Shown one piece after another: positions 44,613 to 45,590 of a stretch of DNA of 64,000 nucleotides (the stretch's first letter is position 1; every line of letters begins with the position of its first letter). The stretch is from contig JAITJD010000009.1 of assembly GCA_031279085.1 (NCBI GenBank), positions 23,763-87,762 of the forward strand, read 5' to 3'. This DNA is from Rickettsiales bacterium. GTDB lineage: Bacteria > Pseudomonadota > Alphaproteobacteria > Rs-D84. A program made the translations under genes and the position numbers. The notes beneath the pieces were generated by a model. The model was not told where the DNA came from, ran no database searches, and saw nothing but the letters and a program-made list of their open reading frames with translations.

Positions 44613-45590
44613 ATGTTTAAAAATTTTCTCGCCTTGTCGCGCGCGTTTGTTTTCTGCTGCGCTTTTTATATAATCTGCTTTGCCTGCGCAGTTGCAGGAT
44701 GCAGAGATACGGAATGGACACATCATCCCAGCGATCCGGGAAACAATCATAACGCGTGGGGCTGCGATTGCAGCGAAAATTCCAGCGGTTATAAAATTCA
44801 TAAAAAAGGATACGGAACCAAGAATCTTTATGATGGCTCTAAGAATTTATGCGCATTTCCGCAGTATTCAGAGTGCAAAGATACCACAGGATCGAGAGAC
44901 ACATGGATAACCTGCACAGGAAAATGGCTCAAATTTTTCGAGGAGGATGTGGACACATTGCCAAAATATGCCGTGAGTGTTCCGACGGACAACGGCTGGG
45001 AATGGAATTGCGAGGAAGGATTTAATAAAAACAGAACCAGTAAGAAATGCGAATGCCCGTCCGGGCAAGTGGTTTTTTCAGAAGCGGTTAAAAAACGTAT
45101 TATTTTTACAGAGATTACTGTTATACAACACACATGCATAACCGAAGAAATATGCAAGTCCAAGCAGGATTATTGGGTACAAAAAGGGGAATGCGTGAAA
45201 ATAAAATGGTGTCGCGAAGGATATAATGCGGCTGTTCATGAAAATTACGAAAGCGGCGATTGCATGGATTTCAAATGCAGAGAGGGATTATGCTTTGAAT
45301 CATCAGGTTCAATCAGCTGCACCGAAACGCAATTCAAATGGGGCGGAACTTACACGGATTCCGTTACCGGCGTTTGCATCAAATGTCCCCAGAACCAGAA
45401 AGCAAGCGAAACCGGCTGCGTGCCGCCGACAAAACAGATGACGATGTCGGATATGAAAAATTGCTATAAATGCGACAAAACCGACGAGCTTAAAAACTGC
45501 ATGCAATTCAAAGGCAGGGCGACTGAAAACGGGGAAATGCTAGCATGCGCCAGATGCTTGAATGATAACGACACGCAGTGCTGGAGATAA
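44613..45590 (+). CDS. Cysteine-rich secreted protein 2 (about 40 Cys in 325 aa; furin-like or growth-factor-receptor-like Cys spacing), hypothetical
   Basis: Strong SD aggagg. Signal peptide MFKNFLALSRAFVFCCAFYIICFACAVAG. Repeated C-x2-C, C-x4-C and C-x-C units (CREGLCFESSGSISC, CIKCPQNQKASETGC, CYKCDKTDELKNC). Confidence 0.5.
   Translation: MFKNFLALSRAFVFCCAFYIICFACAVAGCRDTEWTHHPSDPGNNHNAWGCDCSENSSGYKIHKKGYGTKNLYDGSKNLCAFPQYSECKDTTGSRDTWITCTGKWLKFFEEDVDTLPKYAVSVPTDNGWEWNCEEGFNKNRTSKKCECPSGQVVFSEAVKKRIIFTEITVIQHTCITEEICKSKQDYWVQKGECVKIKWCREGYNAAVHENYESGDCMDFKCREGLCFESSGSISCTETQFKWGGTYTDSVTGVCIKCPQNQKASETGCVPPTKQMTMSDMKNCYKCDKTDELKNCMQFKGRATENGEMLACARCLNDNDTQCWR

Follow-up and report, generated by a model that had tools for sequence, protein, structure and literature searches.

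How does a bacterium come to encode a secreted protein whose cysteines recall those of eukaryotic receptor ectodomains, and what might such a protein do? The gene that raises this question lies at positions 44613–45590 of a 64,000-nucleotide stretch of DNA (the window) from a Rickettsiales bacterium (Alphaproteobacteria; assembly GCA_031279085.1, contig JAITJD010000009.1, positions 23,763 to 87,762 of the forward strand). A preliminary description had called the product a secreted Cys-rich protein with growth-factor-receptor-like spacing, had likened it to furin-like and laminin-EGF-like repeats, and had grouped it with another Cys-rich protein encoded in the window. To our knowledge, proteins held by twelve or more disulfides are rare in bacteria, and in host-associated bacteria such proteins are usually found at the host interface. 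Sequence comparison indicates that no described family covers the protein. Instead, it appears to belong to a small two-module family, not described before, that is restricted, as far as is visible, to uncultured gut-associated alphaproteobacteria labelled 'Rickettsiales bacterium'. The visible range of the family takes in the termite gut, and relatives turn up in bird-gut samples and in further metagenomes. Our favoured reading, which as a whole we hold tentatively, is that the protein is a Sec-exported, disulfide-bonded member of this two-module family and likely serves as a binding scaffold. The structural part of that statement, taken by itself, is very probable.

The coding sequence and the parts of its product are as follows.

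44613..45590, + strand: coding sequence of the Cys-rich exported protein, 325 aa plus stop codon, ATG start (from the open reading frame list and translation).
44613..44696, + strand: signal peptide, residues 1–28, holding 4 of the 30 Cys residues, with a predicted signal peptidase I site AVA↓GC.
44697..45056, + strand: N-terminal module, residues 29–148, 9 Cys.
45057..45128, + strand: predicted long β-hairpin between the modules, residues ~149–172.
45129..45587, + strand: C-terminal module, the family core, residues 173–325, 17 Cys.

The open reading frame (ORF) list and the translation bore out a plus-strand gene of this length. No start codon precedes the ATG at 44613 in this frame, and the overlapping and antisense ORFs are all short. 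As had been claimed, the product begins with a signal peptide, in which MFKNFLALSR precedes a hydrophobic core of 18 residues that runs up to the predicted cleavage site. The Cys content had been put too high at about 40; we counted 30, of which the signal peptide holds 4 and the mature chain 26. The enrichment itself is far above chance, with Cys making up 9.2% of the protein compared with 1.1 ± 0.9% in the 36 other genes of the window (z ~8.8). The three sequence modules that the preliminary description had quoted are all present exactly, CREGLCFESSGSISC at residues 222–236, CIKCPQNQKASETGC at residues 255–269 and CYKCDKTDELKNCMQFKG at residues 284–301. The mature protein is 34 kDa, and aromatic residues make up 10% of it.

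An exhaustive phmmer search of 1.84 billion protein representatives recovered 16 proteins at E ≤ 1e-3, the window protein (P0001) and 15 relatives, with 7 at E ≤ 1e-10. The E-values of the members span 5e-47 to 9e-4, and a hidden Markov model (HMM) of the family scored 188–333 bits on the loci. Membership was judged by significant similarity over the N- and/or C-terminal module together with conserved Cys columns, and the window protein and its relatives (P0001–P0019 and the additional paralog of locus L007) share both. Because the 15 detectable relatives keep these columns and the ratio of nonsynonymous to synonymous substitution rates (dN/dS) is 0.13 in two orthologs, we conclude from the comparison that the gene is real. 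The two orthologs, from loci L003 and L004, are 88% identical, and their dN/dS equals that of their neighbouring genes, which indicates purifying selection. It had been proposed earlier to look for positive selection; no signature was seen in this one pair, the sole close pair available, and pervasive positive selection was rejected.

Searches for anything already described came back without a relative. The window protein had zero matches in Pfam and NCBIfam at E ≤ 1, a PDB sequence search was empty, and the exhaustive phmmer search detected no eukaryotic homolog. A PHROGs scan was likewise empty, and a phage origin was rejected. A word-indexed homolog search returned only the protein itself and, when given the 16-sequence alignment, just 2 proteins despite the presence of other members in the collection. 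In a scan of JGI metagenomes, patterns from the N-terminal module had no match and patterns from the C-terminal module recovered only a partial copy of P0010. We found no prior description in the literature of this family or of comparable bacterial Cys-rich or ephrin-like proteins.

The named members all come from termite-gut metagenome-assembled genomes (MAGs) labelled 'Rickettsiales bacterium', two of them, LBJ73 and LBO08, besides that of the window protein; the other members lie on ENA, Logan or JGI metagenome contigs that are from gut or unlabelled. An identical copy of the window protein has been deposited as the 'hypothetical protein' LBD50_01395 of a Rickettsiales bacterium MAG, on a 161.7-kb contig (NCBI), and another is found on a Logan contig from run SRR14710901, such that the protein is present in NCBI, JGI and Logan. 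P0002 belongs to LBJ73, which is Gx481_bin12, a Glyptotermes gut MAG (whole-genome shotgun set JAISAB01). A termite-gut MAG study (PMC11257099) has this set within its deposited range JAIRJQ–JAITXW and gives Gx481 as Glyptotermes sp., a lower termite from Cameroon. It reports that termite guts house several alphaproteobacterial lineages that are reduced, regards some of these as putative endosymbionts of flagellates, and names the GTDB orders Rickettsiales, UBA3830, RUG11792 and Rs-D84 within the Alphaproteobacteria. The hosts with long contigs have ordinary Gram-negative chromosomes; FabG and FabD of locus L005, for example, are 72% and 63% identical to the window copies. All members with a readable context (P0002, P0003, P0006 and P0010) lie on bacterial contigs, and P0009 has a bacterial MAG label.

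Two members, P0018 and P0019, were found on 8- to 9.5-kb contigs, L003 (CAZHPG010000022.1) and L004 (CAZUED010000021.1), that had been binned as 'uncultured Muribaculaceae' (Bacteroidota). The sources of these contigs are SRP220891 (animal gut, probably bird) and SRP192927. PMC10035134 lists the former among animal gut metagenome data sets, and the authors behind SRP220891 have a 'bird metagenome' study on deposit as well. The two alternatives are that the family crosses phyla and that the contigs, which are short, were mis-binned. In both contigs an ORF of 823–838 aa without a Pfam match lies immediately upstream of the family gene. Copy number varies between genomes. L007 carries two family paralogs, at 2551–3369 (+) and 8001–8816 (+), 4.6 kb apart, and the 64-kb window carries one copy, since tblastn with all members matched it only at 44613–45587.

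The N-terminal module is marked by the motifs GC.GTEWT, NAWGCDCSE.SSGY, C.FP.YS.C, D.W..C and GW.W.C..GF....C. About seven members have it in full (the window protein, P0002–P0005, P0008 and P0014), whereas P0006, P0009–P0012 and P0016 retain just the distal half. The C-terminal module, with the motifs C...C...GY....C...WC, H....C..(F/Y)(K/R)C..G.CF.S....C, FGG.Y...G.C..C and M..C(F/Y).C....(F/L)..C, was found in 13 of the 16 members, and the entries for P0007 and P0013 consist of this module alone. The hairpin between the two modules is expanded by ~14 residues in the window protein alone, as seen in the alignment. Some members also have Ser/Thr/Asn/Gly-rich linker tails, which are typical of surface proteins.

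Members are only 23–39% identical to the window protein overall but retain its Cys columns. No member varies at C284 or C296, and at least 90% of members have C133, C181, C194, C236, W98, W129 and G225. The number of Cys residues in the mature chain is even in 13 of the 14 full-length members, over a range of 14–32. Moreover, some cysteines occur together: both C30 and C51 are present in six members (P0001–P0005 and P0014), with one-sided exceptions in P0008 and P0011, and C227 co-occurs in part with C255. The window protein contains three CxxC motifs (residues 255–258, 284–287 and 312–315) and two CxC motifs (51–53 and 146–148). However, the two Cys of a CxxC motif are not kept as a unit: 56% of members have C255 versus 88% for C258, 69% have C287 versus 100% for C284, and C312 and C315 occur in 31% each. 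Taken together, the export signal, the Cys parity, the co-occurrence of Cys residues and the broken CxxC units argue for a fully disulfide-bonded protein rather than for zinc ribbons.

When AlphaFold2 (AF2) was given the single sequence, the predicted local distance difference test score (pLDDT) was 40. With the 16-sequence alignment the mean pLDDT was 76.6 and the predicted template modelling score 0.51; residues 70–310 mostly scored 83–95 and residues 173–270 scored 86–95, with low confidence for the first 64 and the last 15 residues. The model consists of about 10 β-hairpins and two short helices (residues 278–284 and 290–298), and the strands of the expanded hairpin, 152–163 and 166–177, have a pLDDT of ~90. 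As modelled, the chain has the architecture of a ladder stapled by disulfides and not that of a globular domain.

The Foldseek neighbours of this model were eukaryotic or viral Cys-rich repeats only, namely CD40, TNFR2 and 4-1BB, Pvs25/Pfs25 and NELL2, and R-spondin. The best PDB match was to CD40 (8yx9_A; E=1.7e-3, probability 0.96, TM-scores 0.16/0.28), and RSPO2 Fu1–Fu2 ranked 48th with E=0.075. Viral TNFR-like proteins led the fold search of BFVD. Profile searches gave faint signals of the same kind. Sub-threshold cEGF (PF12662) matches were found in 4 of the 16 members, the best at 24.0 bits (P0011) against a gathering cut-off of 26.6, and none in the window protein. P0002 had a weak match to FXa_inhibition (EGF-like; 16 bits) and P0006 to TNFR_ELAPOR1 (15 bits), and a PDB profile search gave a CR1-like sushi domain as its only, weak match (domain E 0.08). 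The window protein does contain the motif W/F-x-C-x-x-G-F/Y-x(5–9)-C, a signature of the cEGF/sushi hairpin, at residues 129–146 and 219–236. The sole internal repeat, residues 122–146 versus 211–236, had an hhalign probability of 41%, other pairs of sub-modules were below 1%, and these hhalign comparisons revealed no regular tandem unit with a fixed Cys count or spacing. Furin-like, GF_recep_IV and Laminin_EGF had no Pfam match at E ≤ 1 in any of the 16 members, and TNFR_c6 had none in the window protein or the 16 members.

The furin-like or laminin-EGF-like resemblance described earlier thus holds for fold style, with TNFR, EGF and furin-like proteins among the Foldseek neighbours, and is not supported for family membership, as neither profiles nor repeats bear it out. 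Similarly, the notion of a secreted, eukaryote-like protein is borne out by the signal peptide and the disulfide-rich style and lacks a detectable eukaryotic homolog. The model suggests that eukaryote-style Cys-rich modules are the right description in style; the profile searches give no grounds for placing the protein in the furin-like, laminin-EGF, EGF or TNFR families.

The other Cys-rich protein of the window, encoded by the ORF at 33843–34472 (−), has 209 aa and 20 Cys, a signal-peptide-like N-terminus and no Pfam match. The two proteins had been described as a paralogous theme that could be aligned to define a shared repeat. This relationship did not survive comparison: BLASTP gave E=1.9, the family HMM had no match at E ≤ 1 and hhalign returned a probability of 0.6%, leaving no detectable homology from which a shared repeat could be defined. 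A homolog of the 33843–34472 ORF (BLASTP E=6e-6) was instead found in L007, where the gene at 3464–4240 (+) encodes a 258-aa protein with 19 Cys on the same strand as the family paralog at 2551–3369 and 95 bp downstream of it. The two homologs share the motif Y.CAAGYYG......G.C..CP...GTS..G.NT..S.C. By these comparisons the 33843–34472 ORF belongs to a family that is distinct from that of the window protein and co-located with it.

L002, on contig JAISAB010000002.1 of the Glyptotermes gut MAG, provides another case. The gene at 3823–5367 (−) is oriented divergently to that of P0002 and encodes a 515-aa, 44-Cys secreted protein. In Pfam this protein matches CBM_14, the animal-type peritrophin-A chitin-binding domain, at 30.3 bits (cut-off 22.1) and Ephrin_rec_like, as a repeat, at 23.8 bits (cut-off 23.1). 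A host-interface function is possible for it, with a nature that is eukaryote-like or a history of horizontal acquisition, and the C-terminal extension of P0011 matches it at E=8e-5. Because Cys-rich proteins of a second kind adjoin family members in both L007 and L002, a looser idea survives, in which different kinds of Cys-rich secreted protein form a repertoire with co-located genes; paralogy gains nothing from it.

The two Cys-rich proteins of the window had also been seen as bracketing an exporter and giant-gene block. This block consists of a MacB/ABC/HlyD/TolC-type exporter at 34633–39164 (−) and an adjoining 1188-aa ORF at 39413–42979 (+) (NCBI LBD50_01380, hypothetical; no Pfam match at E ≤ 1e-5), which has highly charged flanks and a central Ala/Gly/Ile-rich hydrophobic block resembling several membrane spans. 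The bracketing looks coincidental, as MacAB/TolC and the giant ORF are absent near the relatives in three other genomes. The relatives there lie among unrelated housekeeping genes. L002 has M23/LysM and CBM14 genes next to the family gene, L005 has Ham1, UDG and gyrB, and L007 has spermidine synthase and CvpA. Because synteny is not conserved among the relatives, the exporter and the 1188-aa ORF are incidental neighbours, and a functional link to them was rejected. The window is housekeeping throughout (dnaG, topA, rodA, PBP2, mreBC, pheT, ileS, metG, gidA/gidB, parAB, recF, sspB, accBC, mutS, pnp and lptD). One further ORF, at 57772–59394 (+), encodes 540 aa with ThyX (Thy1) at residues 106–308 as its sole Pfam match; ~100 N-terminal and ~230 C-terminal residues lie outside the domain, and the protein seems long for ThyX.

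Two features lie directly upstream of the gene.

44602..44607, + strand: Shine-Dalgarno (SD) sequence AGGAGG, 5-nt spacer to the ATG (read from the sequence).
44567..44587, + strand: GC-rich hairpin and T-run directly upstream of the SD sequence (consensus scan only).

The SD sequence had been called strong, and it is indeed a perfect AGGAGG. SD-like motifs (AGGAGG, GGAGGA, AGGAG or GGAAGG) were found at the family genes of every locus (the window and L002–L007), and no such motif was present within 25 nt upstream of recF, sspB or the MiaB-like gene of L003. Such clear SD sequences could be a sign that the family genes are highly translated. Between recF and the gene lies a spacer of 320 bp with two terminator-like GC hairpins, each with a T-run, at 44449–44462 and 44567–44587 (+). 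The second, which stops just 14 nt short of the SD sequence, is a candidate recF terminator or regulatory hairpin. A consensus scan found no sigma-70 promoter upstream of the gene. The G+C content of the gene is 44.3%, and 48.6% at third codon positions, compared with means of 49.7% and 56.9% for the 36 window genes. Both values are low yet within the spread of the window genes, whose minimum G+C content is 39.8% (gidB), and recent horizontal acquisition was rejected as far as base composition is concerned.

We propose that the protein would be exported by the Sec pathway and that signal peptidase I would cleave after A-V-A28. In the periplasm the 26 mature Cys residues would then form ~13 intramolecular disulfides, as the sequence pattern and the model suggest, and the product would be an elongated, protease-resistant chain of disulfide-stapled β-hairpins with no globular hydrophobic core. 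Its final location would be the periplasm or the cell surface, or it would be released. In this form it could serve as a stable scaffold outside the cytoplasm that binds or adheres to surfaces of host or gut origin (glycan, chitin or protein), acting like EGF/TNFR-type ectodomain modules without demonstrable membership among them. A binding role is suggested because the nearest structural neighbours are extracellular binding modules, because W98 and W129 are near-invariant in a chain so rich in aromatic residues, and because some members have linker-like Ser/Thr/Asn-rich tails. The chitin-binding/ephrin-like neighbour in L002, the homolog of the 33843–34472 ORF beside the paralog in L007, the fusion in P0011 and a strong SD sequence, which neighbouring housekeeping genes lack, point in the same direction. 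As evidence for a function these points are weak.

Several observations weigh against this proposal. Support for the binding role comes from fold style and from the genes adjoining the family in two of four contexts, and the lack of conserved synteny makes the neighbourhood argument weak. No Foldseek fold match reached E ≤ 0.001, and TM-scores were 0.1–0.3. The binomial P of ~0.0009 for even Cys parity comes from a statistic that treats related proteins as independent. Within the 64-kb window neither dsbA/dsbB nor a dedicated secretion system is visible, and the termite hindgut is largely anoxic. Finally, VAGC at residues 27–30 fits the lipobox pattern [LVI][ASTVI][GAS]C, which would allow a lipoprotein form for this member.

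The lipobox match bears on the alternative that the product is an envelope structural protein, either a lipoprotein on Cys30 or cross-linked between molecules as OmcA/OmcB are, that stabilizes the envelope rather than binding host ligands. FGAC in P0004 and AASC in P0010 likewise fit the pattern, the protein is an exported Cys-rich product of a host-associated and possibly protist-associated lineage, and the strong SD sequence suggests high expression. However, the lipobox is not family-wide. The signal-peptide sites of most members are of the A-x-A type without Cys at +1, and in P0005 (AWAKC) and P0008 (VLAKC) a Lys just before the first Cys is incompatible with a lipobox. Acylation of Cys30 would also leave 25 Cys in the window protein, an odd number; even parity needs this residue to be counted as paired, and C30 co-varies with C51. 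The hairpins of the AF2 model fit local intramolecular pairs, the window encodes RodA, PBP2 and MreBC, leaving a disulfide corset without an obvious need, and no Pfam match was found, chlamydial outer-membrane protein families included. We consider an envelope role unlikely. Slightly less likely still is a secreted, non-adhesive effector that works in the gut lumen, for example as a toxin, an antimicrobial or an inhibitor of proteases. The predicted disulfide-rich, protease-resisting scaffold would suit such a function, as would the fast divergence of the family (23–39% identity), the presence of more than one copy in at least one genome (the L007 paralogs, 4.6 kb apart) and the weak 16-bit FXa_inhibition match of P0002. 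Nevertheless, genes for immunity, transport or processing do not consistently adjoin the family genes, PHROGs had no match, the mature protein of 34 kDa is far larger than typical knottin-type inhibitors or bacteriocins, and a dN/dS of 0.13 carries no arms-race signature in the single pair tested.

Horizontal transfer of a true eukaryotic Cys-rich repeat protein (furin-like, laminin-EGF, EGF or TNFR cysteine-rich domain) from an insect or protist host would account for the top Foldseek matches (CD40/TNFR2/4-1BB, Pvs25/Pfs25, NELL2 and RSPO2, with viral TNFR-like proteins as well) and for the sub-threshold cEGF signal in 4 of 16 members (best 24.0 versus 26.6 bits), and the genuine CBM_14 and Ephrin_rec_like domains of the L002 neighbour mean that such domains do occur in the lineage. 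We nevertheless doubt this origin strongly. Neither Pfam nor NCBIfam offers a match to the window protein at E ≤ 1, the PDB sequence search was empty with only the sushi domain at E 0.08 in the profile search, no fold match reached E ≤ 0.001 and no regular repeat unit is present. The readable contexts (P0002, P0003, P0006 and P0010) are bacterial and none is recognisably eukaryotic, and the gene's 44% G+C lies within the window-gene range. Paralogy with the 33843–34472 ORF, as one family bracketing the exporter/giant-gene block, is very unlikely. Both proteins are Cys-rich with signal-peptide-like N-termini, both kinds of gene are adjacent in L007, and weak cross-matches exist (P0011 versus the 33843 ORF, E=0.082; P0001 versus the L007 neighbour, E=0.003 before correction for 76 comparisons). 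Against this stand the BLASTP, HMM and hhalign results given above, the restriction of family tblastn matches in the window to 44613–45587, and the absence of the exporter and giant ORF from other contexts. Least probable of all, to the point of being nearly negligible, is a zinc-ribbon or rubredoxin-like metal-binding array, the known bacterial fold that the preliminary description had named as what would refute its own view. Three CxxC and two CxC motifs would suit metal binding, but the CxxC partners are unequally conserved (56/88%, 69/100%, and 31% for C312 and C315), a protein with a Sec signal peptide would be exported unfolded, and even Cys parity fits pairing, not four-Cys metal sites. 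In addition, no member had a zinc-ribbon or rubredoxin Pfam match at E ≤ 1, and the AF2 model consists of hairpin ladders. Because the CxxC motifs are not conserved as units and no such Pfam match exists, the disulfide-rich reading stands.

A broader and more speculative proposal, to which we give low but real credence, is that gut alphaproteobacteria carry a private repertoire of receptor-ectodomain-like secreted proteins knotted by disulfides. It would comprise the family of the window protein, the 'CAAGYYG' family of the 33843–34472 ORF and the CBM14/ephrin-like fusions, jointly forming a host-interface toolkit that binds chitinous linings or flagellate surfaces or mimics host receptors. 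The window protein would then represent a new disulfide-rich fold, either a bacterial invention or the over-diverged descendant of a eukaryotic donor. If the favoured binding role is correct, the family would provide a handle on how uncultured gut bacteria attach to or communicate with their hosts, as well as a new disulfide-rich scaffold for the structural catalogue; if it is not, the gene encodes an ordinary lineage-specific hypothetical protein. We regard the family as a solid lead for research on gut symbionts and on disulfide-rich folds.

Among known systems, the cysteine-rich domains of the TNFR proteins (CD40, TNFR2, 4-1BB and RANK; TNFR_c6) resemble the modelled protein in being elongated ladders of short hairpins with close disulfides and no hydrophobic core, located outside the cell. 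However, they are built from a repeated ~40-residue, 6-Cys unit that is absent from the window protein, superposition gave a root-mean-square deviation of 10–12 Å and TM-scores of 0.16–0.28, and the window protein comes from a bacterium and lacks both transmembrane and death domains. EGF/cEGF and sushi domains share with it the aromatic-x-C-x-x-G-F/Y...C hairpin, which occurs twice, whereas the full 6-Cys EGF pattern is not repeated. Furin-like or growth-factor-receptor repeats (R-spondin Fu1–Fu2, EGFR and the insulin receptor) and laminin-type EGF modules share a general disulfide-hairpin style, but their periodic 8-Cys unit is missing. Ephrin-receptor-like/GCC2_GCC3 (PF07699) and CBM14 (PF01607) proteins occur in the same lineage, belong to the same class of secreted Cys-rich proteins and adjoin the family in L002; here the family core has no match, and the link is one of neighbourhood and fusion rather than of core homology. 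The chlamydial OmcA/OmcB proteins are likewise exported, Cys-rich products of host-associated Gram-negative bacteria, and OmcB doubles as an adhesin. Unlike them, the window protein lacks a Pfam match of any kind, its Cys parity and hairpin model point to intramolecular disulfides, and its genome keeps normal peptidoglycan and rod-shape genes. Compared with all of these systems, the building block suggested by the model, disulfide-stapled hairpins in a secreted protein, is known, and what appears to be new is a sequence family with a narrow distribution.

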